A stretch of 64,000 nt of DNA from Deltaproteobacteria bacterium TL4 (GTDB lineage: Bacteria > SAR324 > NAC60-12), in the NCBI GenBank assembly GCA_051382335.1, contig JBBCAX010000090.1:2075-66074 (forward strand), in the 5' to 3' direction. Positions 1-50,900 of this stretch are shown here, one piece after another. Each line of letters opens with the position of its first letter. Within the stretch, counting starts at the first letter, position 1. Made by a program: the position numbers and the translations under genes. The notes beneath the pieces are model-generated. The model ran no database searches and was not told where the DNA came from. It worked only from the letters and a program-made list of their open reading frames with translations.

Positions 1-3000
1 ATTACGACTGGGGTTTTCACGGGTGTATTGTGCGTCCATGAGACTCACTAAGAACTGACCTGATTTAAGAAGGGATTACGACGACATTATCCGCGCTACC
101 AACGCCTAATTGGTAGAGGTCTAAGAACTGACCTGATTTAAGAAGGGATTACGACGTTCCTTCGCGAAGTACCGCATTCCGGCCTATGTGGTATACTAAG
201 AACTGACCTGATTTAAGAAGGGATTACGACATTAAGGTGAAGACCTGAGGCGAGGGATAGAATGCATCTAAGAACTGACCTGATTTAAGAAGGGATTACG
301 ACGTAATGACGCGAACGCTTAAGGACCGCATAGTCACCTCTAAGAACTGACCTGATTTAAGAAGGGATTACGACGTTGTAGAGCCCAGTCCCTTGCGGAA
401 CTGGGGTGCTCTTCTAAGAACTGACCTGATTTAAGAAGGGATTACGACAGGGACGGAATGCATAGCATTCTATCCCTGCCTGGGACTAAGAACTGACCTG
501 ATTTAAGAAGGGATTACGACGCGGTTCCCGCTAGAGGTTCCGTTAAGGAACCTCCTTCTAAGAACTGACCTGATTTAAGAAGGGATTACGACGTAACTAC
601 CCTGGCTCCCTGCAGGTCCACTTGGGAGACACTAAGAACTGACCTGATTTAAGAAGGGATTACGACGTTGTAGAGCCCAGTCCCTTGCGGCACTGGGGTG
701 TTCTTCTAAGAACTGACCTGATTTAAGAAGGGATTACGACTCGTTTTTGTGTCAGGATGTCCCACGAAATGTGGGATTCCTAAGAACTGACCTGATTTAA
801 GAAGGGATTACGACTTAGGCCTCCTCGGGGAGGCTGTAGTACTCTACAGCCTCCTAAGAACTGACCTGATTTAAGAAGGGATTACGACCTCAGTAGACGT
901 GTTAGATAACATGGGCTAATTAAAGGCTAAGAACTGACCTGATTTAAGAAGGGATTACGACGATTGCCCAGTTAAGCCCAATTTTGGGCAAAAAAAAGCG
1001 CTAAGAACTGACCTGATTTAAGAAGGGATTACGACCGGAACTGGGGTGGTTTTGCACGTATCTCTGATCCATGAGCTAAGAACTGACCTGATTTAAGAAG
1101 GGATTACGACTTGATAAGGTCAGGACCGTTAGCAAAGATCCAATCCAACTAAGAACTGACCTGATTTAAGAAGGGATTACGACACGTAGTTGCGGCTACC
1201 TAAGTAGCCGCTGTAGACTTGCTAAGAACTGACCTGATTTAAGAAGGGATTACGATACGGCTCGGCCCGCCGTTCTTCGCCATTTACATACACTAAGAAC
1301 TGACCTGATTTAAGAAGGGATTACGATAAGCTTGCGGACCGTCGTTGGTACCCGTACACCTTACTAAGAACTGACCTGATTTAAGAAGGGATTACGATCA
1401 TTTCAGAACATTTGCCAGGCCTCAATGGACGTGTTAGACTAAGAACTGACCTGATTTAAGAAGGGATTACGATGCTTAATGACGACATACTGACGGCTTG
1501 ATTGGGGCTTGCTAAGAACTGACCTGATTTAAGAAGGGATTACGATTCGTAAACGTATGCTGGGTCCATGAGGCTTAGAGCTTGCTAAGAACTGACCTGA
1601 TTTAAGAAGGGATTACGATCGGAACTAGGGTGGTCGTAAACGTATGCAGGGTCCATCTAAGAACTGACCTGATTTAAGAAGGGATTACGATTTTTCCCTG
1701 GTTACCTCAATCATGGTAGAAACATCTTCTAAGAACTGACCTGATTTAAGAAGGGATTACGATATCACGGTGAAGACCCCGTCAGAGGACGGGTAGAACG
1801 CTCTAAGAACTGACCTGATTTAAGAAGGGATTACGATTTGCCCAGTCCCTTGCGGAACTAGGGTGGTCGTAAACGTCTAAGAACTGACCTGATTTAAGAA
1901 GGGATTACGATCTTTCCCTGTTGAATGGGAAAGCTGAGGCAAGCTTCCCCTAAGAACTGACCTGATTTAAGAAGGGATTACGATCAGGTCACCTGCTTCC
2001 TTGAGTCGTTTCGTCACCTGGACTAAGAACTGACCTGATTTAAGAAGGGATTACGATTAGGCTCTAGTTGTAGAGCCTATACGCTTTTTTTTGCCGGCTA
2101 AGAACTGACCTGATTTAAGAAGGGATTACGATGTTAATTAACTCAAGCTGAGCGTCTTGCATAAGCCTAACCTAAGAACTGACCTGATTTAAGAAGGGAT
2201 TACGATGCTACGTAGTTAGGTTCCATGAGGCTTAGAGCCTGCCTCTAAGAACTGACCTGATTTAAGAAGGGATTACGATTTCGCGGACGCACACTCCAAT
2301 GTAATCTCTTACATTATCCCTAAGAACTGACCTGATTTAAGAAGGGATTACGATCCTAGACAGTTAAGCGGTTCCCGCTAGAGGTTCCGTTCTAAGAACT
2401 GACCTGATTTAAGAAGGGATTACGATCTACCCCCTCGTTCGCCCTATTTGACTTTCCCTGTTGAATCTAAGAACTGACCTGATTTAAGAAGGGATTACGA
2501 TCAGTCCCTTGCGGAACTGGGATAGTTTATCACGTAGTCGCTAAGAACTGACCTGATTTAAGAAGGGATTACGATATCGCGTAGTCGGGTTCCATGAGGC
2601 TTAGCGCCTGCTCTAAGAACTGACCTGATTTAAGAAGGGATTACGATTCGTTCGCCCTATTGGACTTCCCCTGCTGGATGGGGAACTAAGAACTGACCTG
2701 ATTTAAGAAGGGATTACGATCATTCCACCCGTCCTTGTGTCCCTAAGGACACAATTCTCCTAAGAACTGACCTGATTTAAGAAGGGATTACGATCGGCCC
2801 GCTGTTCTTCGCCATTCACATACATGGCGAAGCTAAGAACTGACCTGATTTAAGAAGGGATTACGATATGATGGAGCCAAGCCCGTTGTCACGTAACCAC
2901 TGATGCTAAGAACTGACCTGATTTAAGAAGGGATTACGATCGATTCTTGTCAGTATGCGAGCATTTAAGCTCGACATACTTCTAAGAACTGACCTGATTT

Positions 3001-6000
3001 AAGAAGGGATTACGATCGACGTGTTAGATAACATGGTCCAATCAAAGGAGCTGCACTAAGAACTGACCTGATTTAAGAAGGGATTACGATCGGCCCGCTG
3101 TTCTTTGCCATTTATGTACATGGCGAAGGTCTAAGAACTGACCTGATTTAAGAAGGGATTACGATACTAAGGCACGGGTACCGATTTGCGCCAGGGTAAC
3201 TACCTAAGAACTGACCTGATTTAAGAAGGGATTACGATCGGACGCACATTTCAATGTAATCCCTTGCGTTATCCATACTAAGAACTGACCTGATTTAAGA
3301 AGGGATTACGATTAGCATACTAGTACGGACATTATCCGCGCTACCAATGCCCTAAGAACTGACCTGATTTAAGAAGGGATTACGATTGGGATAGTTTCGG
3401 ACGTATTCCACGTCCATGAAGCTTAGCTAAGAACTGACCTGATTTAAGAAGGGATTACGATCCGTAAGTTCTTCTCCTGATTTCATGTCCATTTTAGTCT
3501 AAGAACTGACCTGATTTAAGAAGGGATTACGATATTAGCGTGATATACCCCTAAATGGGGGGTTACACGCCTAAGAACTGACCTGATTTAAGAAGGGATT
3601 ACGATTCTACAACTAGAGCCTATACGCTTTTTGCCGGTTAACTAAGAACTGACCTGATTTAAGAAGGGATTACGATCCATGAGACTCAAAGCGAGTCTCA
3701 TGGAAACAGGAACTAAGAACTGACCTGATTTAAGAAGGGATTACGATTCAATGTAATCCCTTGCATTATCCATAATATTCTCCGCTAAGAACTGACCTGA
3801 TTTAAGAAGGGATTACGATATTGCCCCATTAAGCCCAAAATTGGGCAAAAAAAAAGCGCTAAGAACTGACCTGATTTAAGAAGGGATTACGATCCTCTAA
3901 GAAGAGGCTGTGTTGTGCCACAGCCTCTTCTTGCTAAGAACTGACCTGATTTAAGAAGGGATTACGATCTTCGTTTAGTCCGTCTCATATGCTACTCCTA
4001 GCGATATTCTAAGAACTGACCTGATTTAAGAAGGGATTACGATTCTAAGAAGAGGCTGTGTTGTGCCACAGCCTCTTCTTCTAAGAACTGACCTGATTTA
4101 AGAAGGGATTACGATCTTTTACTTTGGGTTTTTGTTAGCATGGCGTTTCCTTTTCTAAGAACTGACCTGATTTAAGAAGGGATTACGATGAATACATTGC
4201 TTGACGCACTCGTCAATGTAATCCCTTGCTAAGAACTGACCTGATTTAAGAAGGGATTACGATGTAGGCTTTAGCATCTCTGCTGTGCATGAACGCTGAT
4301 TTCCTAAGAACTGACCTGATTTAAGAAGGGATTACGATTGACTCCAGAGCTGTAGGCCCCTCAAGTAGCATCTCGAAACTAAGAACTGACCTGATTTAAG
4401 AAGGGATTACGATGCTGTGTTGTGCCACAGCCTCCTCTTCTAGTTGTAACGCTAAGAACTGACCTGATTTAAGAAGGGATTACGATTACACGGCGAAGGA
4501 AGCGGACCGTCTCTGGTACCCATACGCTAAGAACTGACCTGATTTAAGAAGGGATTACGATTTGCGCGTATACGCTTTTTGCCAGTTAAGGTACTGGCAA
4601 ACCTAAGAACTGACCTGATTTAAGAAGGGATTACGATTTGCCCCATTTTTTTACCCATTTTGGGCAAAAAAAAGCGTACTAAGAACTGACCTGATTTAAG
4701 AAGGGATTACGATCTAAACACTCTGCCAGTGCTGCCACAGTCTCGCTATGCTAAGAACTGACCTGATTTAAGAAGGGATTACGATCCTTTTTGACGCAAT
4801 CGTCAATGTAATCCCTTGCATTATCTAAGAACTGACCTGATTTAAGAAGGGATTACGATATTGCCACATATCCCATAATATTCTCCTATGGAATGTTCTA
4901 AGAACTGACCTGATTTAAGAAGGGATTACGATTCCGCATACTAGTACGGACATTATCCGCGCTACCAACCTAAGAACTGACCTGATTTAAGAAGGGATTA
5001 CGATTACATGGCGAAGGTTGCGGACCGTCTTTGGTACCCATACTAAGAACTGACCTGATTTAAGAAGGGATTACGATTTGCCATACGCCATCTGAGGATT
5101 CCCAATAGGTATTATGCTAAGAACTGACCTGATTTAAGAAGGGATTACGATAATAGGCCCTATAATGCTTAAGGCCGCTTTTAAGACTCTAAGAACTGAC
5201 CTGATTTAAGAAGGGATTACGATACGCTCTACCACTAGAGTGTATATGCTTTTTGCCAGTTACTAAGAACTGACCTGATTTAAGAAGGGATTACGATATA
5301 TGCTACTCCTAGCGATATTAGCGTGATATACCCCCTAAGAACTGACCTGATTTAAGAAGGGATTACGATAAGGTGAAGATCCCGTCAGAGGACGGATAGA
5401 ATGCATACTAAGAACTGACCTGATTTAAGAAGGGATTACGATAAGTCTCATGGAAAAGGAGATTCCCTTTTTGACGCAATCGCTAAGAACTGACCTGATT
5501 TAAGAAGGGATTACGATAAAGGCGTCTTCCTCTTTCTGTGAAAGAGGAGGAACATAACTAAGAACTGACCTGATTTAAGAAGGGATTACGATGAGGGAAT
5601 CAGGGACACTGCCTTCATTTCACGCAGTATCTCTAAGAACTGACCTGATTTAAGAAGGGATTACGATCCTGCCGCCTTGCAGGTCTACCTGAGAGACAAT
5701 CGTCCCTCTAAGAACTGACCTGATTTAAGAAGGGATTACGATCCTTGGAGAGGCCGGTTGTAAGGGAGAAACTCTTCAGTTCTAAGAACTGACCTGATTT
5801 AAGAAGGGATTACGATTCCGCATACTACTACGGACATTATCCGCGCTACCAATGCTAAGAACTGACCTGATTTAAGAAGGGATTACGATCTTTTCGCGTC
5901 AGTGCCTAGTGTCACAATGTGACAATCTAAGAACTGACCTGATTTAAGAAGGGATTACGATCAGTGTCTAGTGTCACAATGTGACAATAGACTATGTCAA

Positions 6001-9000
6001 CTAAGAACTGACCTGATTTAAGAAGGGATTACGATTCGAACGAGTCCACGCCGATTAGTGTCCCTAGGGACACTAAGAACTGACCTGATTTAAGAAGGGA
6101 TTACGATCATGGAAAATGAGACTCCCCTCCTGACGCAATCGTCAATCTAAGAACTGACCTGATTTAAGAAGGGATTACGATAAGATTAGGCGATTCCTGC
6201 TGTACCGTATAGGCCTAGACTAAGAACTGACCTGATTTAAGAAGGGATTACGATCGGCACTGGGGTTGCTTAGGACGTAGTTTGCGTCCATGAGCTAAGA
6301 ACTGACCTGATTTAAGAAGGGATTACGATATGAACTCGAACGAGTCCACGCCGATTAGTGTCCCTAGGCTAAGAACTGACCTGATTTAAGAAGGGATTAC
6401 GATCGAGGGAGCACAGTTGTGCTCAGAATCGCTACATATTCCCTAAGAACTGACCTGATTTAAGAAGGGATTACGACCCGCTCTTCTAAAAGTTGTTTAG
6501 TGTCTGGGTGCCCCACCCAAGAACTGACCTGATTTAAGAAGGGATTACGACCTTGCAGACCTTCTTTGGTAGCCGTATGCCTTAATCAACCAAGAACTGA
6601 CCTGATTTAAGAAGGGATTACGACTTTTGTCTTTTTGTAAGGATCTAGGGGTTTTTCTTACAGCCAAGAACTGACCTGATTTAAGAAGGGATTACGACAT
6701 GGCTTGCAACCGTGTGATATCGCTACAAATAGAGATTTCCAAGAACTGACCTGATTTAAGAAGGGATTACGACGGTGGATTTCTGCTGTGCCTTAATGGT
6801 CTTGACAGTTCCAAGAACTGACCTGATTTAAGAAGGGATTACGACCACACCCCTTTTTCAGAGGTTCTGAGAGTTTTGGAGTATGCCAAGAACTGACCTG
6901 ATTTAAGAAGGGATTACGACATGAACTCATACGAGTCCACCCCGGTTAGTGTCCCAACCAAGAACTGACCTGATTTAAGAAGGGATTACGACCCATATCT
7001 CTACCTCCCCAGATAAAGTTAACAATAATTCCAAGAACTGACCTGATTTAAGAAGGGATTACGACTTGAAATTCGAAGTATGCAATGCCTTGATTGCCAT
7101 TGACCCAAGAACTGACCTGATTTAAGAAGGGATTACGACTTCCTCTCGATACAACCTGAATACCCCCATTGGAGGTATTCCAAGAACTGACCTGATTTAA
7201 GAAGGGATTACGACTTCTTCACTTGAGAGGAGTACCCATTGCAGGGTATCCTCATCCAAGAACTGACCTGATTTAAGAAGGGATTACGACCTCCCGGAAT
7301 CTGGCGCTACATGGCCTTCATCATAGCGAACCAAGAACTGACCTGATTTAAGAAGGGATTACGACTACGAATTCGCTTGCTCTGCATTTATATTTTCCAT
7401 TTTACCAAGAACTGACCTGATTTAAGAAGGGATTACGACAGCAGGGTCACAAACCTGCTCCCCTGCAGGTCTACCCTCCAAGAACTGACCTGATTTAAGA
7501 AGGGATTACGACCATCACACTACCCCTTTCGGGTAACTTCGTTTAGTCCGTCCAAGAACTGACCTGATTTAAGAAGGGATTACGACCGGCCATAACAGCC
7601 GATTTATACTCTTCATTGTTGGAACCAAGAACTGACCTGATTTAAGAAGGGATTACGACAAAGGCAACACAGTGGTGCTCAATATAGCTACAAATTCCCC
7701 AAGAACTGACCTGATTTAAGAAGGGATTACGACCGGGTTAGACACGCTTGATGTGTTAAGGGAGTTTATCCCCCAAGAACTGACCTGATTTAAGAAGGGA
7801 TTACGACCATCGAAATTCGTATAGTCGCTCCATTGAGCGCCTTTTGCGACCAAGAACTGACCTGATTTAAGAAGGGATTACGACCATCTCCTCCACCGAA
7901 AACGCATCGTAAAGATGCGATTCGGCCAAGAACTGACCTGATTTAAGAAGGGATTACGACAGGGATGATCGGACATTCTTCTCCAAGTTACTGGTTAAGC
8001 CAAGAACTGACCTGATTTAAGAAGGGATTACGACGCAGTACCCTAGCGTTTGGACGGTATACGTTCCGTCCAACCAAGAACTGACCTGATTTAAGAAGGG
8101 ATTACGACTTCCTCGCTGGATAGGAGTACCCATTGCAGGGTATCCTCCAAGAACTGACCTGATTTAAGAAGGGATTACGACAGTCGGTTTGTGACTAGGA
8201 CGTCTTCAGAAGAAGGCGCACCAAGAACTGACCTGATTTAAGAAGGGATTACGACTCTAGGTCTTGCTCCTCACCCTCGATGCTTCCCACAACCAAGAAC
8301 TGACCTGATTTAAGAAGGGATTACGACTCAGGGCATTTCTCCAGCGTTTGGACGGAATAAGTTCCGCCAAGAACTGACCTGATTTAAGAAGGGATTACGA
8401 CATCATAAAGATGCGATTCGGTGTCTGAAATTACAAGCACATCCAAGAACTGACCTGATTTAAGAAGGGATTACGACCCATTACTGGGGTCATCTCCTCG
8501 CTGGTGAGGAGTACCCATCCAAGAACTGACCTGATTTAAGAAGGGATTACGACCGTAACTGTCACGACTTGGTTTTCACGAACAGACTTGACCCAAGAAC
8601 TGACCTGATTTAAGAAGGGATTACGACTTTTATTAGCCCTGCGGCTAATAAAACCGCGGGCTCTGCCCAAGAACTGACCTGATTTAAGAAGGGATTACGA
8701 CAGGCCGACAAAATTGTTACTTCCTAAGTAGCAACCGTACCAAGAACTGACCTGATTTAAGAAGGGATTACGACGTTCTGGAGCCTGCTCTGAAGCCCCT
8801 GTTTCGCCCTGACCAAGAACTGACCTGATTTAAGAAGGGATTACGACCCTTGTTGACTTCCCTTGTTGAATAGGGACACACAGACACCAAGAACTGACCT
8901 GATTTAAGAAGGGATTACGACCTGGTTTCACGAACAGACTAGACCTATAAGGTCTAGTCCAAGAACTGACCTGATTTAAGAAGGGATTACGACCCGGATA

Positions 9001-11714
9001 TGATTTCCAGGTCTTCAACGATTAAGGTGAAGACCCAAGAACTGACCTGATTTAAGAAGGGATTACGACGTTTCCCAAAGGATTCCATTATACATATCCC
9101 TCCTTAACCAAGAACTGACCTGATTTAAGAAGGGATTACGACTTAATTTCATGGTTCGTGTACTGTAGCACACCTCGCAAGTCCAAGAACTGACCTGATT
9201 TAAGAAGGGATTACGACTCTGCATAACCCTTTCTCCATTAGGGGTTTTTTGGGCAAGCCAAGAACTGACCTGATTTAAGAAGGGATTACGACGCCCGCAT
9301 TGCTTCACCATTCACATACATGGTGAAGCTGCCAAGAACTGACCTGATTTAAGAAGGGATTACGACATAGGGTGTTCAGCCTCATTTAGAAAGACCAGTA
9401 CTTCCAAGAACTGACCTGATTTAAGAAGGGATTACGACAATTCGGCCATAACAGCCGATTTATAAGCCGATTTATATCCAAGAACTGACCTGATTTAAGA
9501 AGGGATTACGACAGCATAGATATTCCTATCAAATGCCCCGATATGGTCCTTGCCAAGAACTGACCTGATTTAAGAAGGGATTACGACAAATTCCATAAAT
9601 CTCCTTTATGGCAAGTTTTTTGGGCAACCAAGAACTGACCTGATTTAAGAAGGGATTACGACAATAGGAGCCGTACACTACACTGGACCCCATTACAGGG
9701 CCAAGAACTGACCTGATTTAAGAAGGGATTACGACGAGCTTTTTTCTGCCACAATCTGGACGCCCCAGCGTCCCCAAGAACTGACCTGATTTAAGAAGGG
9801 ATTACGACATAGCACTCTACCCCCGCTTGAGTACCTAAGCTCTCAACCAAGAACTGACCTGATTTAAGAAGGGATTACGACCCGCCCGCCTAGCTTCACC
9901 ATGTATGTACATGGTGAAACTGCCAAGAACTGACCTGATTTAAGAAGGGATTACGACAATTCACTCCTGAAGGTTTCAATGCTTACCACATCGACCAAGA
10001 ACTGACCTGATTTAAGAAGGGATTACGACCGGTTACAGTAGCTGGGACTGCTACTTTGTATGTGTCCGACCAAGAACTGACCTGATTTAAGAAGGGATTA
10101 CGACGTCGTTAACCCTTTAGTGAACTTGCGTACCTGCGCCAAGTCCAAGAACTGACCTGATTTAAGAAGGGATTACGACGCTCTGTCAGAAAACCCTCTT
10201 CACGTATAAATTTGCCTCCAAGAACTGACCTGATTTAAGAAGGGATTACGACAGCTTCTCGTTAGTGTTGGGATTACGGTAGGTCCCCTGCCAAGAACTG
10301 ACCTGATTTAAGAAGGGATTACGACTCCGGAATTGTTCAGCTTGGGTAGCAATCCAATTCAGGACCAAGAACTGACCTGATTTAAGAAGGGATTACGACC
10401 CAGGAGTAAGACATTGGTATAAATCCTGATCGCAAGACCAAGAACTGACCTGATTTAAGAAGGGATTACGACGCTCCGCCCAGATTTCTACCCTGAAATA
10501 ATTTTGTTCAGCCAAGAACTGACCTGATTTAAGAAGGGATTACGACGTCTTAGACCTCTGTTATATTTTTAACAGATTTTTGTTCCAAGAACTGACCTGA
10601 TTTAAGAAGGGATTACGACATCTACTAAGTCCCTCACGTCTGTGAGGGAAGTGCATTTTCCAAGAACTGACCTGATTTAAGAAGGGATTACGACAAGCAA
10701 TTCGCGTCAATACACGCACGCTTAAATTCGCCCCAAGAACTGACCTGATTTAAGAAGGGATTACGACGGGTTCCAAGACGCAATGCTTATTGTAAGGGTT
10801 TCCATACCAAGAACTGACCTGATTTAAGAAGGGATTACGACCCTAACTTTCAGGCCGGCAAACAGTTTGGAAGGAGCCGGGATCCAAGAACTGACCTGAT
10901 TTAAGAAGGGATTACGACCCTCTGAACTCCATCACCCTGTCTTCTTTAATAAGGAGACCCAAGAACTGACCTGATTTAAGAAGGGATTACGACGTGCCTT
11001 CATTCCAGCCGTTGTGGCCAGAAACTACTCGACCAAGAACTGACCTGATTTAAGAAGGGATTACGACCTTCTCCATAATCGATGTTATCTTCATTTTAGT
11101 CTCTCCCAAGAACTGACCTGATTTAAGAAGGGATTACGACGATTTAATATTATCACGTCTCCTGAGAGCATGTCTTCTGCCAAGAACTGACCTGATTTAA
11201 GAAGGGATTACGACTTATGACTTATCTCAGGTCATTTAGTTATTTTCCCCAAACCAAGAACTGACCTGATTTAAGAAGGGATTACGACTAAATGTCTTGT
11301 ACTCGGGTCTTGATAGTGCTTACAGCCAAGAACTGACCTGATTTAAGAAGGGATTACGACCTTACCACATTTCGAGTAATCTGACGATTTGACAACACAT
11401 CCAAGAACTGACCTGATTTAAGAAGGGATTACGACATGTGTATCATTTCTTGGATATACCTCCCCTTGGAGGCCGAGAACTGACCTGATTTAAGAAGGGA
11501 TTACGACTAATAAGTTTATATAATTATAAATGTTTTCTCTTTATTCCGAGAACTGACCTGATTTAAGAAGGGATTACGACTGCTCAGTAGTATACTCAAC
11601 CACTGAGCACCCTTTTTACCGAGAACTGACCTGATTTAAGAAGAGATTACGACCGGACGTCCTCGCGGTCCGTCCAGAAGTTCAGAGCATCCCCGAGAAC
11701 TGACCTGATTTAAG
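1..11714 (+). CRISPR. Large CRISPR array (~160 repeat-spacer units, 35-bp repeat C(T/C)(A/G)AGAACTGACCTGATTTAAGAAGGGATTACGA(C/T), spacers ~36-41 bp), type III-like; begins before the window
   Basis: Repeat recurs every ~73 bp from position 1 (partial) to a mutated repeat at 11619 and a truncated one at 11693-11714. The degenerate right end and the ATTACGAC 3' end (8-nt handle-like) imply + strand transcription with the leader to the left. Unit count is estimated from length/period. No cas genes in the window. Confidence 0.98.
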
Positions 11715-12019: not shown

Positions 12020-14141
12020 TTGTGGAGGGGGTCTATTCGTAGTAAATATGCCAACCTTGAACCAGTTTCCAAAATCATTCGTAGCGTCAATGAATACTAT
12101 TATCTGACTCAGGGACATTGGGATGACCATGAAATGCACTATTTCCGTTCTGCCTTGATGGAAATTGGGATGGATCAAAAGGTTCCCCTTCAGGCAAACC
12201 AGTTTTTTGAGGCAATCCTTCAGGATCGAAGCCAGATTGATAAATTATTTGAAGGCATTGGCTCTGAAAACATCATGCCCATTCCTCCCCAACAACGGTT
12301 TTATCAGCCCTTGCTCAAAGGGCTTGAACTGGTGCAGGAGCATGAAAACATGAATCTGGAAACCCTGACCCATTCCTTGAGGGATGAACTGGAAATGGAT
12401 TCCGGCGCTGAACTCAATGCTCTGGACTTTGCCTCTGACCTTCTGGCTTCCCGCAGAATGGCGGACCGGCGAAAAAACGCCTGGACTGGGGAGAAGCAAC
12501 AGACCTTGAGAGAAAGGTATTTGGAACAACTGCAAGCCTGTGCTCAAATTTGCGAGCAACATCACCTGGAAGCCACCTTTCTGAAAAAAAATAAATCTTC
12601 TCAAAGAGGAAATCGCCCGTTTTGCCATCATCGTCCCTCTGATGGGTAAAACGTCTGCGGGAAAGAGCCGTTTATTGAACACCTGGCTCGAAAAAGAGAT
12701 CCTGGGTGTGGATACCTTGCCTGAAACCACCATCGCTACTGAATTGCGGTATGGGATGAAGGAAAAGTTGATCCTGCATTACCTCAACGAAAAGGTGGAA
12801 GAACGAGAACTGGGGGATTTGAAAACACTCAGTAAAAATACAAAAGACATTCTTTTTGCTGAACTCTATCTGAATAACATCAAGCTCAAGCACCGACCGT
12901 CATTGGTTCTGGTGGACATGCCGGGGATTGGCTCCAATTACGAAAACCATACCAAAGCCCTTGTGAACTATGTCCAAAGGGGGCACTACTACGTTCTGGT
13001 GCTGGATGTGCAGAATTATTCCGATGCGGATGTCCTCAACTTTATCAGGGAACTGACCTCCTACAAACAAAATTTTTCCGCAATCATCACCAAAGTGGCA
13101 CGCAAATCCAAAGATCAACTTGCGGGTATCAAACAGATTGTTCAGGAGCGTTGTCTGCAACTGACAAAAAATCAGGTGGAAGTGGGGTTGGTGGAGTGTG
13201 ATACCCCGGATATTCGAGATTTTGAAGTCCATCTGGGAGTGATTTTCAGCAAGGAAGAATCTATCTTCCAAACTCAATTTGCGCACCCAATGGAGGAGCT
13301 GTTCCAGGGGCTTCAACAGTATTTCAACCGCTTATTGGCTGGAGACAACCTGTCAGGGCGTGAAGTTGACGAGAAAATTGCGGAATGTAGCAAAAACCAG
13401 AAAAAACTGGAGCGAGACCTCCATGAAATGTTGGAAACATTGAATTATCAACTTCAGGAGGTTGCGACCGAAAGAGTGGTCAACGAGGTACAAAACGCTC
13501 TCAACGCAAATCTGTCTGCGCTGGTCAGTGCCTCCGAAAGTGGAAGTACCACCTTGAACAAGACTCTCACCAACATCCTTCGTCTCCTTATTTTGAAAAG
13601 TGTTCAGCGAGAGGCCTCCTCCGAAATTGAAAAAATTTCAGGACAACTGGAGAGCCTCCTCCAGAATGCTTTTCCTGACTTCCATTTTAACCTGACTCCC
13701 TCCTATGAGATTGGCAAAAATGGAGCCATTGCCGGAGGCCTCACAGGCGCAGCGGCGGGAAGCGCCTGGTTGTTGGGAAGTGCGGTTTTGGTTCCTATTG
13801 CAGGAATAACCCTCCCGGTTTTAGGTCTGATTGCGGCAATCACCGGATATGGAATCCGTGCCCAAAAAAAGGCGCTGGAGGCTCAAGTTCGTGATGAAAT
13901 TATTCCTCATGCGGTGGCTCAGTCCAGAACGGCCATCAGGGAATGTATGACCCAAATCCAAAAGGACATTGCCTCGAAGATCACAAAGGAACTGCAACAG
14001 AAAAAAGCTGAATACGAAAAGGCTTTGGAAACCCTGAAGTCCCAAAAAATAGAGTCTCAACAAACCTATAACCAAAACAAAGTGAAGTGGGAGGCGGCGT
14101 TGGTTCAATTGTCAGGGTTTGCAGAACAAATCAGACTGTGA
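12020..14141 (+). pseudogene. Dynamin-like GTPase (LeoA-like, Eleos-type), split by a +1 frameshift in an A8 tract at 12584-12591
   Basis: ORF 12642-14141 has G1 GKTSAGKS, G2 PETTIATELRY, G3 DMPG, G4 TKVA and a glycine-rich hydrophobic hairpin. Removing one A joins ORF 12020-12649 in frame via KKINLLKEEIARFAIIVPLMGKTSAGKS. Confidence 0.75.
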
Positions 14142-14545: not shown

Positions 14546-14562
14546 TAAGAAAGGTGGTCATT

Positions 14563-15015
14563 GTGTCCCAATCTTTATCAAAAATTCTCCTCCATCTGGT
14601 GTTCAGTACCAAGAACCGAATCGATATGATTCCAACCGAGCTTTTGCACGAGGTACACGCTTATTTAGCGACAGTCTGCCGTACTCAGGAGAGTGAGGCT
14701 TTTCGTGTGGGTGGAACGGGAAACCATGTCCATATCGCCTGTACCTTGCCTCGAACCTTAACGGTGAGCAAATTGCTTGAAGAAATCAAAAAATCATCCT
14801 CTCTCTGGATAAAACAACGAGATGCACGTTGTTCCGATTTTTCATGGCAAGCGGGATATGGAGCGTTCTCTTTGGGACAGTCTCAGTTAGATAGTCTCAT
14901 TCGTTACATAGACACTCAAAGAGAACATCATCAGAAAATGACGTTTCAGGAAGAATTATTGGAACTTCTTCGCAAATATAACGTGGCCTATGATGAAAAA
15001 TATTTGTGGGATTGA
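14563..15015 (+). mobile_element. tnpA: IS200/IS605-family Y1 (HUH) transposase, REP-associated (RAYT-like)
   Basis: HLVFSTKNR, HUH motif NHVHI, FSWQAGYGAFS, catalytic Y in YIDTQREHH; flanked by palindromic REPs. Confidence 0.9.
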
Positions 15016-15024
15016 ATCCCTACA

Positions 15025-15925
15025 GAACGCCCTTACAGAACCCAGGGCTTCACCCTGGGCTGGTATAGAAACCCCTTTCAGGGGATTAAAGGTGAAAACC
15101 TGAAGGGGATTAAAGGTGAAAACCCTGAAGGGGTTGAATATACCAGCCTGGGGCATCGCCCCAGGTGATAGAATTCGCCCAAGAGATTAGCCCTGTAAGG
15201 GCGTAATATCCATTGCAATAGAACGCCCTTACAGGGCTGTGTTTGTTTGGGGTTGCTGGTTCCCAGGGCTTCACCCTGGGCTGGGATAGGAACCCCTTTC
15301 AGGGGATTAAAGTTGAAAACCTGAAGGGGATTAAAGGTGAAAACCCTGAAGGGGATTAAAGGTGAAAACCCTGAAGGGGATTAAAGGTAAAACCCTGAAG
15401 GGGATTAAAGGTGAAAACCCTGAAGGGGATTAAAGGTGAAAACCCTGAAGGGGATTAAAGGTGAAAACCCTGAAGGGGATTAAAGGTGAAAACCCTGAAG
15501 GGGATTAAAGGTGAAAACCCTGAAGGGGATTAAAGTTGAAAACCCTGAAGGGGATTAAAGGTGAAAACCCTGAAGGGGATTAAAGTTGAAAACCCTGAAG
15601 GGGATTAAAGGTGAAAACCCTGAAGGGGATTAAAGGTGAAAACCTGAAGGGGATTAAAGGTGAAAACCTGAAGGGGATTAAAGGTGAAAACCTGAAGGGG
15701 ATTAAAGGTGAAAACCTGAAGGGGATTAAAGGTGAAAACCCTGAAGGGGTTGAATATACCAGCCTGGGGCATCGCCCCAGGATTAGAATTCATCCGAGAA
15801 CTTAGCCCTGTAAGGGCGTAATATCCATTGTAATATAACGCCCTTACAGGGCTGTGTTTGTTGGTGTTTGCTGCTTCCCAGGGCGTTGCCCTGGGCTGGG
15901 ATAGGAACCCCTTTCAGGGGATCAA
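15025..15925. repeat. REP cluster with a ~20-copy 21/22-bp tandem repeat GGGGATTAAAGGTGAAAACC(C)TGAA (15300-15750)
   Basis: Direct reading; a ~200-bp REP module (15120-15310) is duplicated at 15740-15920. Confidence 0.9.
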
Positions 15926-16058: not shown

Positions 16059-17162
16059 ATGTCTTTATTTAATATGAATCCCGATGAATCAACGGAATCC
16101 CCAGAGGAAGAGGGGATTGGAACCGAGAACCGCTATCTCCAGAAAACGTCTGAAGGCATGAAACTGGTGGCCAAATTGGTTTCAGTGGGAGAGAAAAGAG
16201 GAAAAACGGATGAGTTGATGCTGGAAATGAATCGACTGATTGAGGAAAAATTTCTCACACTTTCCAAGGACGATGAGGCTCCTGGGGGTGCGGATACCTA
16301 TGCGGATTTGCAAAAAGCCTATGACGATCTGGAGGCGTTGGTCAGCTTTCCTCAATTTGAAAACCACACCATTGTCGCGGTGGGAGGATGCTTTAGTTCA
16401 GGCAAGTCCTGTTTTCTGAATTCCTTGTTGGAGGAAACCAACCTGCTGCCTTCGGATACCACGCCCACCACCTCGATTCCTACCTACATCATGGCAGGAA
16501 ACGAGGATGCCTTTTATGCCCTGAACAAGCATCAAAACAAGGTGGTGATTGATCGGGACGCACTGGATGCGATCACGCATCAGTTTCTCACACATTACAA
16601 GGTGTCGTTCAGTCATATTTTGAGGATACTGACTGTTGAGCGCAAAAACTTCAAGCACCCCAACCTCATGTTTCTGGACACGCCAGGGTACAGTAAAAGT
16701 GATCACCTCAAACGCAAAGAAGACAACACCGATGAAAATATCGCCCGAGAACACTTGAGGAACGCAGATTTTCTGATCTGGCTGATGGACATCCAAAATG
16801 GAACGGTTCCTCAAACCGATATTGAGTTCATCAAGTCACTCCAGTTTAAGAAACCCATTCTGTTCATTTTCAACAAAGCCGATAAGAAGCCTGCCAAAGA
16901 TGTTACAAACATCATCGAGGTCGCCAGCAAAAACCTGAGCAAACAGGAAATTCAGGTCTATGACGTCATTGGCTATTCCTCCAATGAAATCCGGGAATAT
17001 TCTCCTCAGGGAAAGGCTCAGGATCAAAGACTTTTGGAAGCCCTGGAGTCCGCTGTTTCAGTTTCAGACAAGGGAGAGCTGACTTCCCCCCTTTTCATCT
17101 CTAGCATGTGTTACAATATCGCCAGGCATTTTCACTCCCTGAACGAGGAAAGCACATTCTGA
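16059..17162 (+). CDS. Dynamin-like GTPase (LeoB/LeoC-like), probably truncated and fused
   Basis: TIVAVGGCFSSGKS (G1), PTTSIPTY (G2), DTPGY (G3), FNKADK (G4); the C-terminal PLFISSMCY segment looks like part of a second dynamin. Confidence 0.75.
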   Translation: MSLFNMNPDESTESPEEEGIGTENRYLQKTSEGMKLVAKLVSVGEKRGKTDELMLEMNRLIEEKFLTLSKDDEAPGGADTYADLQKAYDDLEALVSFPQFENHTIVAVGGCFSSGKSCFLNSLLEETNLLPSDTTPTTSIPTYIMAGNEDAFYALNKHQNKVVIDRDALDAITHQFLTHYKVSFSHILRILTVERKNFKHPNLMFLDTPGYSKSDHLKRKEDNTDENIAREHLRNADFLIWLMDIQNGTVPQTDIEFIKSLQFKKPILFIFNKADKKPAKDVTNIIEVASKNLSKQEIQVYDVIGYSSNEIREYSPQGKAQDQRLLEALESAVSVSDKGELTSPLFISSMCYNIARHFHSLNEESTF

Positions 17163-18223
17163 AGGCGTTAAACAAGATGTATTCCGGTCTGAATCTTGAT
17201 CCTGAATCCTTGATGCAGTTGGCTAATTTTGAGGGGGTGCGGAAGAACCTGGAACTGATCAAACCCCGAAAAGACAGCATCCTTGCCCAAGCCTTTGAAA
17301 GTCTGATGCGGCAATCTGGCGAGGCTTTCAAAAAACAATTGGAGAAAATTCAGAAAGACATCCGTGCTAAACACAAAAATTTTTGTGAGGGGGATATTCA
17401 ACAATTATCCCAAAAACAAGAACTCACCAAGCAGCGACTCAATAACGGGAAGGTCAAGGTGAACGGAATTTTTCAGCGTCATCTGAATCAAATCGAAGGC
17501 AAATTTTCAAAATTATTGCTGGAAATTGAACAAGCCTCCATCAAAGCCAAACGAGTCAAAGCCGGGCAAAAGACAGAAACCTACAGTTCTGAAGTGAGTG
17601 ACTCAACCTGGTATAAATTCTGGACTTGGGGTTCTACCAGAACAGTCTATCACAGCATTGATTATGTCTATGCCAGGGTGAATAACGCTTTGGAGCAGCT
17701 TGAAGACTATGTGATGAATTCCAAAACCATGATTTATGAGGCGATTCAGGAGATTGTCAATATTGAACAGTTTCGCAAGGAGATCAAGGAAAGTGTGATG
17801 GGCTTATTTGATTTGAACGATGACAACTTTGATCCCCAGTCCATTCTCATTCCTGTGGAAAACGCTGTGGATCGCATCAAAATCCCACCGGATGTGCAGA
17901 TCAACGTCAATCAGCATATTGACACCGTCCGTAACAAATTCAAGAGCGGGGAAGTCCGTGATGATGAGGTCTCCAGCCTGCGAAGCGAACAAGGCCGTGT
18001 GGTGGAAATCATTGAGAATGATATCAAAAATGAGGTGCGTGGTATTACCCAAAAAATTATAGTAAAACTCACTACCATCCAAAACATCTTTATCCCTGAC
18101 CTAACCCAAAGAATGGAGAACGAGCTGAACCAATTGCAACAACAACTTCAGGACAAAGAACGCTATAAAGCCCGCTATGAAACTCTGATCAAGGTGCTGG
18201 GAAACGATTTGAGGGGGTTATAG
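17010..18223 (+). pseudogene. C-terminal helical part of another dynamin-like protein, lacking its own GTPase domain and frameshifted near 17148
   Basis: ...PLFISSMCYNIARHFHSLNEE continues in another frame as KHILKALNKMY...LANFEGV; helical stalk with WYKFWTWG membrane-proximal motif; ORF 17108-18223 has no convincing RBS/start. Confidence 0.55.
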
Positions 18224-44931: not shown

Positions 44932-47900
44932 CTATCTACTTTTTAAAGGATCCTCCGGCGCAATCTGAAGAACCACAACGGGTCGAGCCTGATTGTCGTA
45001 AATGGGGCAAAAAATTCCATTACCTTCCCGTTCCGCATCCCATTGATCTATCGCTTTAAGCATCTTGTCAAACGCGGCCATTTGATCGGCGTCGATTGGT
45101 ACTTCCGTTTGACGGTCAGACTCCCCCTCACCGTCGGTGTCCTTTTCAAAAACCAGTTTTTCTATTTGATGAGAAGGCGCACTGAAGGCGTCTTTGACAC
45201 GAATGGAATCTTGAGAGCCTTCAATCTGCATGATCATATCCTGAGCCATTTTGGAAATTCTCAGATCCTCTGGAGAAATTTGGGAACCAAAATGAATCAC
45301 ATCTTTTCCTTCATACTCCTCGATGACCAACTCACCAGCACCTCGATGAAATTCATAGAGGTCATTGACGGGGTCTGCCTCACTTTCTGATTCGGGTTCT
45401 GTATCATCAGTATCCGATGGAGTGTCGCTGTTTGTATCAATTAAAACTTCTTCGACGCCATCATCCATTTCCGTGAGATATTCCGTCGGAATTAAACTAT
45501 CCGTAAAATAATCCTCAAACTCCTCTGCCGTCAAAAGTTCCTGAGCAAAAACGAGATTGGGAATAGGCCGTTCCGTCTGTGAAAACCAGTCCGCGATTTC
45601 AAGACCGTCCTCTTGTCCAATAAAACCCAGTTTCAATAAATCACCCTCTCGCCGTACCTGTAGGTCCGCAGGAGTTATACCATCCCCAAATAATAAGACA
45701 TCCCCTTGAAGAGCTGAAATTTGCGCATATAAAGGATGGGTCTCCGTAAGGGAAATCTGTTCAATGGTAAAAGGAAATTCATCTGAAGGCGTTTTGTGAA
45801 AATAGTAAATCTGATCTCCTGCTTTATCAACCAAATGAGCGTTTGAAGTTTCAGCACTCGTTTCATCAGTTGTATTTGGTTTTGCTTCTGTTGAGCCTGT
45901 TTCTTGATCGATTTCAGTAGAGTCTGTTGTTTCTCCAGAATCGGAATGAATCAAAAACGTTTCAGGTGCGGCTTTTGCTGCATTGGGGCGGATATTCTGG
46001 ATCACAAAACTTTCTACCTCACTCGCACCCATTATTTCCGGTTCTCTTTCTTCGGAAAACGTCATAAAATAATATGCGGGGAGTTCTCCAGTATACCAAT
46101 TTTTTATGGTGACACCACCTCCTTGTCGCATGGTCACGACTAGATCTTGTCCCTCTCTTGAAAAACTTAAGTCCGATCGTTGCGCTGCATATTCCCTTTC
46201 AGCAAAGTAGACAATATGGCCCGTTCCCTCAATGCCAAATTCACTCAGAAAAGGATTCGTGGTATCAGTTCCAGTATCAATGATGGTATGATGACCCCCT
46301 CCTGGTGCAATCATGTAGACATCACCACCTTCTCCACCCATTAAAATATCATCACCGTAACCTCCCGATATTATATTAGTATTATCATCCCCTTCAATTA
46401 GATCATTGAGAAAAGTACCTGAAAGCATACCCTGACGATCCAATTGCTCTGCGGTAATATGGGTGTCTAATTGTTCTATGACAGGACTTAGATCAAGGGC
46501 AGAACCGTCGTTTAACAAAATTTGTTCAATATGATTTGTTCTTGATAATACCCAATCATTTATTATAACCATGTCATTCGTTCCAATTCTGTGAATCACC
46601 AGGTTTTTTTCTTCGATTCGTATGTCCAAATCATCAGAACTGATCCCCTCTCCAAATCTTAGTGTGTCATTGCCCCCATACTCATAGATGGTGTATTTCC
46701 CTGCCCCTTTGTTAAATACAAAATTGTCATCGTCTTCAGTACCTTCCTTTCTAGCTATCGTAGTAGAATGATCCTCAAGCCATTTGGCTTTCTGAATATT
46801 GATTTCAGTTTCAATCTGATCCGCTGGAATGAGGGTATTATCGCTGAAGACCAAATCCATTGAATTTTTATCATTAAACCATGACCTTAAAGTGACTTGA
46901 TCTTCTGTTCCTCGAATCTGAAGTATCAAGTTCTTATCTTTCTGAATGTATTCGATATCTGTTTTTGAAATATCAGAACCAAATTTTAACTGATTGGTTT
47001 CATAGTTAAGGTCATATAAATTAATGGTATCTTTGCCATCACCTCTGTTGAATAAATAAGTATCCTCCCCCTCTTCGTCAATATAGGTATCATCGCCAAG
47101 TCCGCCATTTAAAACATCGTCACCCTGTCTTCCTAAAATAAAATCATTTCCCTCTGAACCTGAAATGAGGTCCGCTTCGTCATGTCCTTCAAGAAAATCA
47201 TCTTGGGCGGTCCCTTCATATAATGTGATGTGATTGTTTATCGTTTCATTATTCCAACGGGTTCCATCATTAAAAATGAAAGCACTCACTTGAAAAGAAG
47301 CGCTGGCTCCCCAGAGTGTAAATGTGATTTGATCGGTTGTGTCTTTGATTTTGAGAACAAGATCTTTTCCGTGTCTTTCCAAAATCAAATCGTCAGGGCC
47401 GATTCCTTCACCTAGGTTCACGCTCCCGTCAGTTGAAAGCTTATGGAAATTTTTATAAGTTTGTTCCCCCTGTTCCCTGTCGAGACTATAGGTAGGATTG
47501 TCTTCAATGACTTCGCCAGGGTTAAGCCATTCTTGTATTTCTTCATAGGCTATCGTTTGCCCATTAAATATGTTCTGGGCGATGATGATATTAAAGACGG
47601 GAGGGTTTTCTTGAAACCAGTTTTTGATGGTAGCTCCACCGGAATGATTAGTGATGGTAATTACAAGGTCATTCTCATTTCTTATTAAAGAAAGATCATC
47701 AGGAGTAAGGGGAATCTTTTCATAATCTGAAGAGTTGTTACTATCTTTGAACATAAAACAAAGCGTATTTCCAAAAGGAATAGTTCCAGAACGTGTCACT
47801 GTTTGGATGGATATTCCCGTCTCAATGATGGTATGGTGACCGCCCTCAGGATCAATGAAATACATATCGCCACCTTCGCCGCCGATCAAGGTATCTTGAC

Positions 47901-50900
47901 CTTCTCCTCCATAAAGGTCGTCTTCTCCCTCTCCACCTTCCAGAATATCATCCCCTACACCACTTTTTAAACTGTCACTAGAATCACTTCCAACTATATG
48001 TTGATTTTCAATCTCACGTATGGACTGCATATCCACAGGGGTTCCATCGTTGAGCAGAATTTGTTCTATTTGATTTTGCTTGCTTTGAAACCAGTTATAA
48101 AACACAACTTGATCCTGTGACTCTGCTATAGAAAGTACTAAATGCTCTCCTTGCTGAGCAAAACTCAAATCATCAGCATTAATGCCTGCTCCCAGTTTGA
48201 AAACATCAGCACTTCCTCCGGAATCCGTTATCGTATCACTGCCGTCACCCGAGTTATAGAGGTAAGTATCATTCCCTTTTCCGCCACTTATCCGGTCATC
48301 TCCTTTTCCTCCGCGAATGGTGTCATTGCCTCGTCCTCCTTCCAGATATTCACTTTCATCAGTTCCTTCGATTTGTTGACTCTGACAAAAAATGGCATTA
48401 ATGGATTCTTGGGAAACGCTGGAACCATCCTTAAAACGAATCTGCTCAATCGGAAACTGTATCGCGTTTCCACCTCTGACTAATATTCGATCGGTAGAAT
48501 CTTTGATTTGAAGAAGTAGGTCTTCACCTTCCATTTTGATTTCCAGGTTGGTTTCAGTGATCCCTTCACCAAACTGAAGGACATCCTGCTCCCCATCAAA
48601 ATCCTGAATGATATCCTGTCCATCTCCCAAATTGAAATGATAAGTATCGGAGCCTGAATTTCCCACAAGCAAATCATTTCCAGATCCTCCTGTCAGCGTA
48701 TCGTCTCCCGCCATCCCAGCCAGCGTATCATTACCGCCGAGGCCATCCAATTCATTGGCTTCCGCGTTTCCTATCATATCATCAGAAGATTCCGTTGCTT
48801 CGAAAATCCATTGCGGGTCGATTTCATCCACGGTGAATTCTGTTCCATCGGCAAACTTGATGCGCGCTAAATTTACCCAGCCAATTTGATCACTGGAATC
48901 CTTGATTCGAAGGAGAGAATAACCTGGTTTTTTTATCCATATCAAATCATCGTAGGTGATGCCTTCTCCAAATTGTAGCGTGCATTGTCCTTCGAAGTCA
49001 TAAATGCTGTCTTGTCCATCTCCTCGGTTGAATCGATAAACATCATTCCCTAGCATTCCGTAGAGAACATCATTCCCTTTTCCTCCTATGAGCGTATCAT
49101 TACCGGCCAAACCAAAGATCTCGTCATCTCCACCTAATCCACTAATTTCTTCAGAAAGTGCTGTCCCATAAATTTCTTCTGACTCATCGGAACTGTAAAT
49201 GGAAGTATTTTCAAAAATCATCTCTGGATTCAACTCAGTTCCATCTGAAAACTCCAATTTTGCCAAATGAGCTGAAGTATAAACTACACCGGAAACCAGA
49301 GTGATTTGATCTGAAGAATCTTTCAGGCGGATGATTATATCACGTCCCTTTTGCTCAAACTCTAAACTGTCAGGACTAATCCCTTCTCCAAACTTGATGC
49401 TATCTTTCTTCGTTCTATCACTGGAATAAAGTTCTATTCTATCTTGTCCATCACCCCTATTAAAGATATATGTGTCTTGTCCATCTCCTCCTGTTAATGT
49501 ATCATTTCCTTTTCCACCCGTTAACAAGTCATCGCCGCCGTTGCCCTCAATCGTGTCATTCCCGTCGAATCCTGAGATAACGTTATCAAATAAATTTCCC
49601 AAGAGGGTGTCGTCATTGTCTGTTGCCTCAAAGATGATTTGAGCCATAATGTCTTCAGTGCTCAAAACCTGAGTGCTTGAGTGAAAGGTGATTTGTTTGA
49701 GTTGCGCTCGACTGTCTTCATTCCAATTGAGCAGTGTGAGTTGATCCGTTGTCCCTGAAATTTTTATGATTAAATCATTCCCGATTTGTACAAACTCCAA
49801 ATCTTCCGGAGCGATTTCTTCTCCAAAGTGCAGGGTGTCTTCAGGGGTGTTCACATTATATTGATTGGAGGATTTAAAAATTTTAAATAGGTCGAGTTCC
49901 AATGTATCCTGACCATCGCCCCTGTTAAAAATGTAGGTATCCCTTCCTTCATTTCCATGTAACTGGTCGTTTCCTGTCCCACCAACAAGAATATCATTCC
50001 CCTCTCCTCCATCAATTACATCATCGCCACTATCGCCCTGCAAATGATCGTCCGAAAAACCTCCTTTAATAGTGTCGTTTCCACCTGATCCATAAATTTG
50101 AATAGGATTCAAAACTCCCCAAGAAAGATCATCATCTCCGTCCGTTCCTTCCCAGAGCAAGTGTTGCTCCATTTGCTCGGGTGTTAATGTCTGGTCAGAA
50201 AAAACCACTTGCGATAGACGGTTGGAATCATGTTTAAACCAATCGCTAAGGATAACCTGATCCGCCGTTTCTTTGAAACGTATTAACAAGTCATCAGCCT
50301 TCACTAAAAATTCTACTTCTGAAAAATTTACAGCGTCAAAATTCAGTTTGTCATTGGGTTCCGCTTGAATGGTGTCTTGACCATCTCCACGCTTGAATAC
50401 ATAAACATCGGAACCGTCATTTCCTTCCAATAAATCATTGCCTTCTCCTCCAATCAATGTGTCGTCTCCTTCTCCCCCGCTCAGGACATCATCCCCTGCG
50501 TCACCATTCAAAAGGTCATCGCCTTCAGCTCCTGTTATCGTATCTGAACCTCCCAACCCTGACAGTTCGTTGGCTTCAGAATCTCCATTAATAAAATCAT
50601 CAGTATCTCCAATAACTAATGAAACTAAAGGGGTATAAGATTCTTGAGAAACAACGGTTCCGTCCTGAAATTTTATATCTATCTTTTTAGAATGAGTGAC
50701 CCAATCCTTGATGGTGATTTGATCTTCGCTTTCATTGATTGAAATCACCAAATCCGGACCACGTTGAGTCATTGTCAGATCGTCCTGATTGATGTCATCT
50801 CCAAATTGAATCAAATCCCGTGTTGGGTCATCCAAGGAATACTGGGCTTCAAGAATAACCGTGTCTTGTCCATCCCCACGGTTGAATACGTAGACATTGT

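Follow-up and report, generated by a model that had tools for sequence, protein, structure and literature searches.

A type III-A CRISPR array of Deltaproteobacteria bacterium TL4 in which more than half of the spacers probably derive from a few short stretches of DNA mobile elements belonging to one diverged family

The draft genome of Deltaproteobacteria bacterium TL4 contains a type III-A CRISPR array, over half of whose spacers were probably taken from a few short, transcribed stretches of a single diverged family of DNA mobile elements. Most of this array lies in a stretch of 64,000 nucleotides (nt), positions 2075–66074 of contig JBBCAX010000090.1 (assembly GCA_051382335.1), called here the window and contig C90, respectively. 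An earlier reading of this window, referred to below as the original prediction, had proposed that its spacers overlap one another and rebuild small proteins of an unknown, diversifying invader. We report below the overlaps, their strand bias and coding signal, a second array of another type matching the same sequences, and the searches made for the target.

Results

A long array joined to a complete type III-A locus

Within the window, the array runs on the + strand from position 1 to 11652, with 158 spacers of 36–42 nt and a 35-nt repeat of consensus C[T/C]AAGAACTGACCTGATTTAAGAAGGGATTACGA[C/T]. Leftward of the window, 28 further spacers are found up to the start of C90, which brings this contig to 186 spacers. 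An A+T-rich leader and two repeats are present at the end of another contig, C45, whose last spacer is the first spacer of C90. Joined at these ends, the two contigs hold an array of at least 187 spacers genome-wide. With the leader on C45, beyond the left edge of the window, low window coordinates correspond to the newest spacers.

Two blocks are distinguished by their repeats: a younger one (9–6442, + strand), with variants CTAAG..GAC and CTAAG..GAT, and an older one of 70 spacers (6478–11618, + strand), with variant CCAAG..GAC. The old end of the array is a degenerate terminal repeat (11619–11653, + strand, 2 mismatches), and a second degenerate repeat, with 1 mismatch, is located near this far end, at 11473. 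The variants come in blocks (starts at 48, 1222, 6443, 6517, 11473 and 11619), and their order from old to new is CCGAG..GAC (degenerate), CCAAG..GAC, a single CTAAG..GAC, CTAAG..GAT, and CTAAG..GAC again. These blocks look like the record of a leader-proximal repeat that changed step by step, including what seems to be a reversion or a recombination.

Upstream of the array on C45, an effector part made of cas6, cas10 (HD, Csm1_B and palm domains), csm2, csm3, csm4 and a weak csm5 is followed by genes for a Card1-like CARF nuclease, a SAVED fragment and a CARF-adenosine deaminase. The adaptation part comes next, with cas1, genes for a protein of 921 amino acids (aa) and for a 1054-aa AddA/RecB-like helicase-nuclease, and two cas2 genes, and it leads to the leader and the array. 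Csm1 (1.3e-81), Csm2, Csm3 (1.8e-56) and Csm4 were above the NCBIfam cut-offs, Csm5 was weak (34.3 bits for a cut-off of 38.3), Pfam found HD, Csm1_B and palm2 on Cas10, and Cas6 was also found. The locus is a complete type III-A (Csm) CRISPR-Cas system, with Cas6, adaptation genes and a leader-adjacent array.

The 3' end of the repeat, ...GGGATTACGAC, is kept in the arrays of five relatives and in an array on a Methylocaldum plasmid (see below). Such conservation fits an 8-nt handle on the CRISPR RNA (crRNA), predicted from it and from the orientation of the array to be ATTACGAC, as well as transcription of the + strand. With this direction of transcription, target RNAs would read as the reverse complements of the spacers.

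Some components of the locus deserve mention in their own right. Between cas1 and the two cas2 genes (C45, L001 12950–18893), the 921-aa protein belongs to no Pfam or NCBIfam family, and the 1054-aa protein that follows it, inside the adaptation operon, is an AddA/RecB-like UvrD helicase with a C-terminal PD-(D/E)XK nuclease; the pair is possibly a dedicated end-processing enzyme for prespacer supply. Two effectors of the cyclic-oligoadenylate type are encoded as well (L001 4842–5954 and 8120–10300), the Card1-like CARF nuclease and a 726-aa CARF-like/adenosine deaminase fusion, and the SAVED fragment of 106 aa sits between them.

Spacers overlap one another, almost always on the same strand

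Two spacers were counted as an overlapping pair when their ungapped score was at least 12, and tiles (components) were built at a score of at least 11. Among the 17391 pairs formed by the 187 spacers, 100 overlapped on the same strand and 4 on opposite strands, and no overlap of either kind was obtained in three shuffles of the 187-spacer set. The overlaps announced in the original prediction are therefore real, and so are all the spacer starts it had named, each of which is a spacer in the array call. In the window alone, the counts were 65 same-strand and 4 opposite-strand overlaps among 12403 pairs. Two of the four opposite-strand pairs are palindromic, and their same-strand alignment is the better one. 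Common to the remaining two is the spacer at 2058–2097 (+ strand), terminator-like with its G+C-rich hairpin followed by T8; this is the sole clustered spacer possibly opposite in orientation, and its orientation is ambiguous.

A total of 104 of the 187 spacers fell into 28 tiles, which add up to 1665 nt and contain 14, 9, 9, 7 and 6 spacers, then 4 (four tiles), 3 (five tiles) and 2 (fourteen tiles); the 83 remaining spacers are singletons. Within the window 84 of the 158 spacers are tiled. The prediction had placed the reconstruction between positions 9 and 9921, and every tiled spacer of the window is indeed inside this interval (84 of the 135 there), whereas the array itself runs to 11652 and leftward off the window.

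Tiling concerned 86 of the 117 younger spacers (74%; 29 spacers upstream of the window included) versus 18 of the 70 older ones. Some of the older spacers are diverged versions of loci hit by young spacers, namely 6552, 9293 and 9882 (in open reading frame (ORF) B, described below), 8848 and 7513. Had sampling been uniform, 86 tiled spacers out of 117 would correspond to a single strand of about 4 kb. Tiles differ widely in size, which indicates hotspots, so that these 4 kb are no genome size. That a large share of the array bears on a small sequence space is well founded, 48 spacers falling on 588 nt in total in the tiles of the ORF A neighbourhood (the terminator and the intergenic stretch as well as ORF A).

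Five pairs of spacers were 100% identical over their overlap, and four of them were offset by 1, 2, 6 and 7 nt. Such offsets in identical sequence point to separate acquisitions and not to duplications. One exact duplicate spacer pair was found, left of the window at the C45/C90 join. In the III-A protospacer flanks, no conserved base and no protospacer adjacent motif (PAM) was detected, and a III-A PAM was rejected on this absence of flank conservation.

The reverse complements of the tiles read as diverged genes

The reverse-complement frames proposed for the tiles are open. In the tiles that have a single open frame (components 0, 1, 2, 7, 13 and 19), variable columns at codon positions 1, 2 and 3 number 36, 23 and 70. 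The pooled ratio of non-synonymous to synonymous divergence (pN/pS) is 0.45 in frame (pS 0.41), and the wrong frames give 1.02 and 1.34. Tile by tile, pN/pS ranges from 0.06 to 0.62, the highest value being that of the variable middle of ORF A, and pS between variants is very deep (0.4–0.75). A Shine-Dalgarno motif with an ATG and an open frame is present in 16 of the 187 reverse complements versus 2 of 187 in the array sense; among the controls, it occurred in 2.3% of random host 38-mers (5000 of them) and, on average, 4.1 times in a shuffled set. Because open frames, third-position variation and the excess of Shine-Dalgarno plus ATG sites all fall on the reverse complement, the III-A spacers are antisense to the messenger RNAs (mRNAs) of the target. 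Other tiles are non-coding hairpin clusters.

In this respect the original prediction was accurate: the targets are protein-coding and diverged, and synonymous changes back the frames. Its groups of peptides were also recovered, ORF A as components 1, 0, 22, 11 and 17, ORF B as component 2, the core of ORF C as component 19, and four other peptides as components 13, 7, 24 and 6. Certain joins inside the groups were less solid, spacers 375/667 and 4414 sharing only 6–7 nt, 156 and 5668 about 5 nt, and the joins 5668–7440 and 8478–9663 being weak (scores 9 and 8). Spacer 2427, which had been read as ending in a stop, in fact ends ...NEGV.

ORF A is small, roughly 60–65 aa. The order of tiles in its vicinity, built from weaker overlaps and with one spacer of a type I-E array (see below) as a bridge, is a hairpin cluster, a hairpin with a T-run, a palindromic intergenic stretch, a Shine-Dalgarno motif and ORF A. 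Its start is carried by the spacer at 3748–3784 (− strand), whose reverse complement contains the Shine-Dalgarno motif and the ATG, and the N-terminal tile is made of this spacer and eight more (3239, 2280, 4786, 4190, 6108, 5443 and two upstream of the window). The 14-spacer tile contains 375, 667, 1838, 2502, 1620, 1036, 6255, 9, 1547 and 3677, plus four spacers upstream of the window; at its distal end, the spacer at 375–413 (− strand) belongs to the variable middle with pN/pS of 0.62.

The motif TTGCCCAAA[A/C]AAC was found in five reverse complements, among which that of the spacer at 9588–9627 (− strand), and in none of the spacers in array sense. In four of the five it is followed by a Shine-Dalgarno motif and an ATG, and the fifth spacer ends inside its Shine-Dalgarno motif. 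It stands upstream of at least three different start regions, in young and old spacers, and no promoter was called convincingly. As for spacer 4860, it had been considered as a sign of a replaced gene cassette, and was dropped, the evidence being too thin.

Divergence between overlapping spacers increases with their distance in the array

Overlapping spacers of a same tile are 0.89 identical when fewer than 10 spacers apart, and 0.72–0.78 identical farther apart. Identity decreases with array distance (Spearman rho −0.36), a value reached in 0 of 2000 permutations of array position within tiles. This suggests that the array is a record through time of diverged variants of the target.

A type I-E array samples the same sequences from both strands

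A complete type I-E locus (cas3, cse1, cse2, cas7, cas5, cas6e, cas1e and cas2e), with 11 spacers, is present on contig C353. Seven of these spacers match III-A tiles and are divided 3 to 4 between the two orientations, and an eighth, IE604, resembles by eye a variant of IE482. Flanks could be read from overlapping spacers in four cases: AAG (IE543, three partners), AAG (IE726), AGG (IE177), and CCT for IE238, the latter read from a diverged partner, so that AAG/AGG occurs in three of the four. AAG is the type I-E PAM in Escherichia coli. For Streptococcus thermophilus, PMC13575424 reports 5'-AA as the type I-E PAM. On C353 (L099 1–790), two protospacer positions are each held twice, in diverged form and with the same boundaries (IE421/IE726 and IE482/IE604). 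These are the same sites, re-acquired from different target variants.

Only two cas1 genes, those of the III-A and I-E loci, exist in the genome. Pfam and NCBIfam scans found no reverse transcriptase (RT) domain in the III-A Cas1 (383 aa), and none of the 20 RT-domain (RVT_1) matches of the genome is on C45 or C353, hence none lies beside Cas1. These 20 matches, located on many small contigs, suggest numerous group II introns or retroelements. As the I-E spacers come from both strands and have AAG/AGG PAMs, the target most probably has a DNA form, and spacers would be acquired from DNA. The hint at an RNA virus or a viroid-like target made in the original prediction finds no support in these spacers, nor in a Cas1 lacking an RT.

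Spacers of both systems are rich in hairpins

The mean folding z score of the 187 III-A reverse complements was −1.34, with 29% of them below −2, compared to −0.19 (9%) for 66 spacers of related arrays and −0.10 (6.5%) for 200 random host 39-mers. Tiled spacers were the most strongly folded (−1.79, 39%), followed by coding tiles (−1.25, 29%) and singletons (−0.91, 20%). For the 11 I-E spacers the mean was −0.96, with 4 of 11 below −2 (random 32-mers, 7.7%). Since two adaptation systems agree on hairpins, the tendency to fold seems to lie in the target itself. Stem pairs changed on both sides and still pairing numbered 27, versus 6–10 in slid controls. They include the in-frame hairpin of ORF B carried by the spacer at 2795–2832 (− strand), where a G-C pair becomes A-T in 9293 and 9882, a compensatory change.

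Searches for the target

The target was searched for by single-spacer BLAST and by scans for exact motifs, which are sensitive to near-exact matches only. In the host assembly (6.6 Mb), blastn-short of the 187 spacers gave the I-E array of C353 as sole match, and 50 consensus peptides, generated by a script and used in tblastn, reached an E value of 0.16 at best. Self-targeting was rejected, there being no host match for the spacers; protospacers in the host chromosome, which would have spoken against a foreign target, were thus absent outside the I-E array. Among 61 relatives, BLAST of the array retrieved only arrays with related repeats and matches of 26–35 nt due to low complexity or to the repeat, and none of 113 spacers from relatives' arrays was in common with the TL4 array. 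A degenerate ORF B pattern, searched in the 88 species genomes that represent the class of the host in the collection used, had one match, with an in-frame stop.

Outside the relatives, the whole array was compared by blastn with INPHARED phages and PLSDB, and all matches were due to chance (E 0.1–0.6) or to the repeat. Motif scans of IMG/VR gave 0 or chance matches, and the 65 motif-pattern matches in this database were all single, with no second spacer or peptide match. Exact-motif scans of JGI metagenomes gave 0 matches, those of GTDB species genomes 13 chance matches with no agreement beyond the 20–23-nt pattern, and a PDB profile search with the N-terminus of ORF A a best E value of 0.85. 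The target had been said to be possibly undescribed: it has no match in the collections searched, and its novelty is provisional because these searches were single-spacer BLAST or exact-motif scans. It had also been thought recoverable from the immune memory of the host. This is correct for about 1.7 kb in 28 pieces, and not for a genome.

In the course of these searches, an unannotated CRISPR array was seen on a Methylocaldum szegediense plasmid (NZ_OX458334.1, 25.7 kb; L100 3001–3900), with a repeat of the same family ending ...GAAGGGATTAAGAC. It shares no spacer with the TL4 array.

Other features of the window

Just past the array, two dynamin-family GTPase genes (12642–14141 and 16059–18223) flank an insertion composed of an IS200-like Y1 transposase gene (14554–15015) and, after it, a 25-nt unit, AGGGGATTAAAGGTGAAAACCCTGA, repeated in tandem about 18 times (15080–15749). 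From 44932 to 63999, the minus strand is taken up by one open frame, which exceeds 6349 aa and runs off the window edge; it has several internal repeats of 27 nt and 54 nt.

Discussion

We propose the following scheme, which we hold to be probable as a whole. The array would be transcribed left to right, into crRNAs that carry the + strand of the spacers and pair with RNAs reading as their reverse complements. More than half of the spacers would have been taken in many separate events, all along the history of the array, from one diverged family of phages or plasmids. The most sampled stretch of this family would consist of a non-coding hairpin cluster, a terminator-like hairpin and a palindromic intergenic stretch, and then ORF A. 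Cas1-Cas2 would take the spacers from DNA, and their near-total antisense orientation would arise by selection, because type III immunity needs a target transcript. Clustering may reflect an acquisition hotspot on promoter-proximal early genes, a stronger protection by spacers of this kind, or both. The host would have met successive diverged variants and re-sampled the same loci each time.

Several points weigh against this scheme. The strand bias, about 103 to 1, is stronger than a hitch-hiking model predicts, so that strand-specific acquisition may also be at work. The hotspot model does not account for the enrichment in hairpins, coding tiles included, and the compensatory signal is mixed, the share of changed cells that still pair being 0.34 versus 0.34–0.43 in controls. 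Tiles were ordered around ORF A only, and some of them could derive from unrelated elements. That the target is one family, that the genes are early, that the position is promoter-proximal and that the element is a phage or plasmid are all readings of the spacers themselves, no sequence bearing the protospacers having been found in any collection searched. Finally, C353 has a G+C content of 47.1% for a genome mean of 43.6% (standard deviation 1.6), and its tetranucleotide correlation of 0.76 is lowish; because of this somewhat atypical composition, its presence in the same cell as the III-A array is likely, and not more.

A possible alternative, to which we give a lesser probability, differs from our scheme only by the identity of the target and the cause of the clustering. 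The target would be a single-stranded or rolling-circle replicon of a few kb, such as a microvirus-like or inovirus-like phage or a small plasmid. Tiling would then follow from genome size, strand bias from genes all on one strand, and hairpins from genome-wide folding. Single-stranded DNA genomes are strongly folded, and such phages carry their genes on one strand. The 4 kb deduced for the young block under uniform sampling, the hairpins enriched in III-A and I-E spacers as well as in coding tiles (29% with z below −2), the stems that stay paired through double changes, and the many Shine-Dalgarno plus ATG sites, which imply short genes, are all in line with it. Uniform sampling of 4 kb would nonetheless give a largest tile of about 7 spacers, and the uneven series observed (14, 9, 9, 7, 6 and so on) indicates hotspots at any genome size. 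The 83 singletons also fit poorly, and no Rep, coat or morphogenesis gene was recognised, the 11–13-aa peptides of single spacers having been submitted to no family search. A more ambitious version, which we find unlikely, makes of the array a time-ordered record of a long arms race against small DNA replicons of one family, densely folded, perhaps with a single-stranded or rolling-circle form, and absent from the collections searched. Stems would be kept by compensatory changes even inside genes, and the upstream motif would be private to the family. Hairpins, in addition to the early promoter, would help account for the repeated sampling of the same spots by both CRISPR systems, perhaps by way of DNA breaks that form at hairpins and that the AddA/RecB-like enzyme processes.

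Alternatively, the tiles could represent a mobile module, for instance a cassette for anti-defence or regulation that has a promoter motif of its own, shared by several otherwise unrelated phages or plasmids. The presence of TTGCCCAAA[A/C]AAC before at least three start regions, in young and old spacers, goes in this direction, as do the variable middle of ORF A (pN/pS 0.62) and the very deep synonymous divergence (pS 0.4–0.75), and PMC13575424 describes variable regions of small genes located behind early promoters. We nevertheless judge it quite unlikely, several tiles with pN/pS of 0.06–0.14 looking like conserved core genes. If spacers had been copied by an RT, either off an RNA replicon or off abundant transcripts, the strand bias would follow directly; hairpin-rich targets would suit this reading, and the genome has 20 RT-domain matches elsewhere. 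It is very improbable given a plain 383-aa Cas1 devoid of RT domain and the absence of RT matches on C45 and C353. Moreover, the I-E array holds both strands of the same sequences, with AAG/AGG flanks, which needs double-stranded DNA, and a strand bias due to selection alone is documented in PMC7515739. A target existing only as RNA was rejected on the both-strand I-E spacers with their PAMs and the RT-less Cas1. Lastly, the overlaps could be artefacts of segment duplication, of strain variants collapsed in the assembly, or of chance similarity at low complexity, in a draft genome of 445 contigs with 2.6% contamination and one exact duplicate spacer pair at the C45/C90 join. We give this hardly any credence: overlapping spacers are offset and 10–30% different, which duplication could not produce, shuffles gave 0 overlaps, differences track codon structure, and an independent array with a different repeat matches the same sequences. 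Offsets, divergence, codon structure and the second array largely refute duplication, which was rejected.

If our scheme of a type III-A array repeatedly sampling one diverged family of DNA elements is right, a single natural array offers a deep, dated series of variants of one invader, in which the same 100 nt were sampled independently up to 14 times. The evolution of this invader under type III pressure would be directly readable, in its synonymous and non-synonymous changes, its variable patch, located in a small promoter-proximal protein, and its stem-preserving changes. The early-gene hotspot rule, established experimentally in Streptococcus, would extend to an environmental lineage that is unrelated to it and has a very long array. 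Handles for recovering the element from environmental DNA are provided by sequence tags amounting to about 1.7 kb, by a conserved motif of 13 nt and by the probes of two CRISPR systems.

The general phenomenon has already been described, for type III systems (PMC13575424, PMC7515739) and for the tiling of spacers (PMC6858448). In S. thermophilus, natural and experimental type III-A spacers pile up just past an early phage promoter, with a strand bias and no PAM, and type II and I-E spacers are spread and strand-balanced (PMC13575424). TL4 resembles this system by its plain Cas1-Cas2, its spacers antisense to mRNA, the absence of PAM and a strand-balanced, co-resident I-E array; it may also resemble it by a clustering past a promoter on small early genes, "early" and "promoter" being deductions for the TL4 target. 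It differs by the size of the array, at least 187 spacers against a mean of four (PMC13575424), by tiling inside one array and not across 715 genomes, by the richness of its spacers in hairpins, and by the AddA/RecB-like pair between cas1 and cas2. In the system of PMC7515739, spacers are acquired from both strands and a strong strand bias can come purely from selection, most retained spacers being from the early region. TL4 likewise has no RT associated with Cas1 and a very strong bias among retained spacers that selection can explain; that study followed a laboratory infection by a known phage, whereas the TL4 array is an environmental record of many diverged variants.

Overlapping spacers of Sulfolobales CRISPRomes were tiled into viral contigs, some of them without known virus (PMC6858448). 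Stretches of a target are rebuilt in the same way in TL4; there, spacers of a community were pooled by amplicon sequencing, whereas here a single array provides a time order and a series of variants. With the RT-Cas1 type III systems reported to take their spacers from RNA (PMC5576922, PMC6821258), TL4 shares the type III context and spacers matching transcripts. Unlike them, its Cas1 has no fused or adjacent RT, and a DNA-targeting I-E system samples the same target. Thus the TL4 array matches published type III behaviour in its strand bias, its lack of PAM and its balanced I-E counterpart, and its mechanism is of a known kind. What is unusual is its scale (no fewer than 187 spacers, with tiling of 74% of the newer ones), the series of variants held in a single array, the hairpins, and the AddA/RecB-like pair in the adaptation operon.

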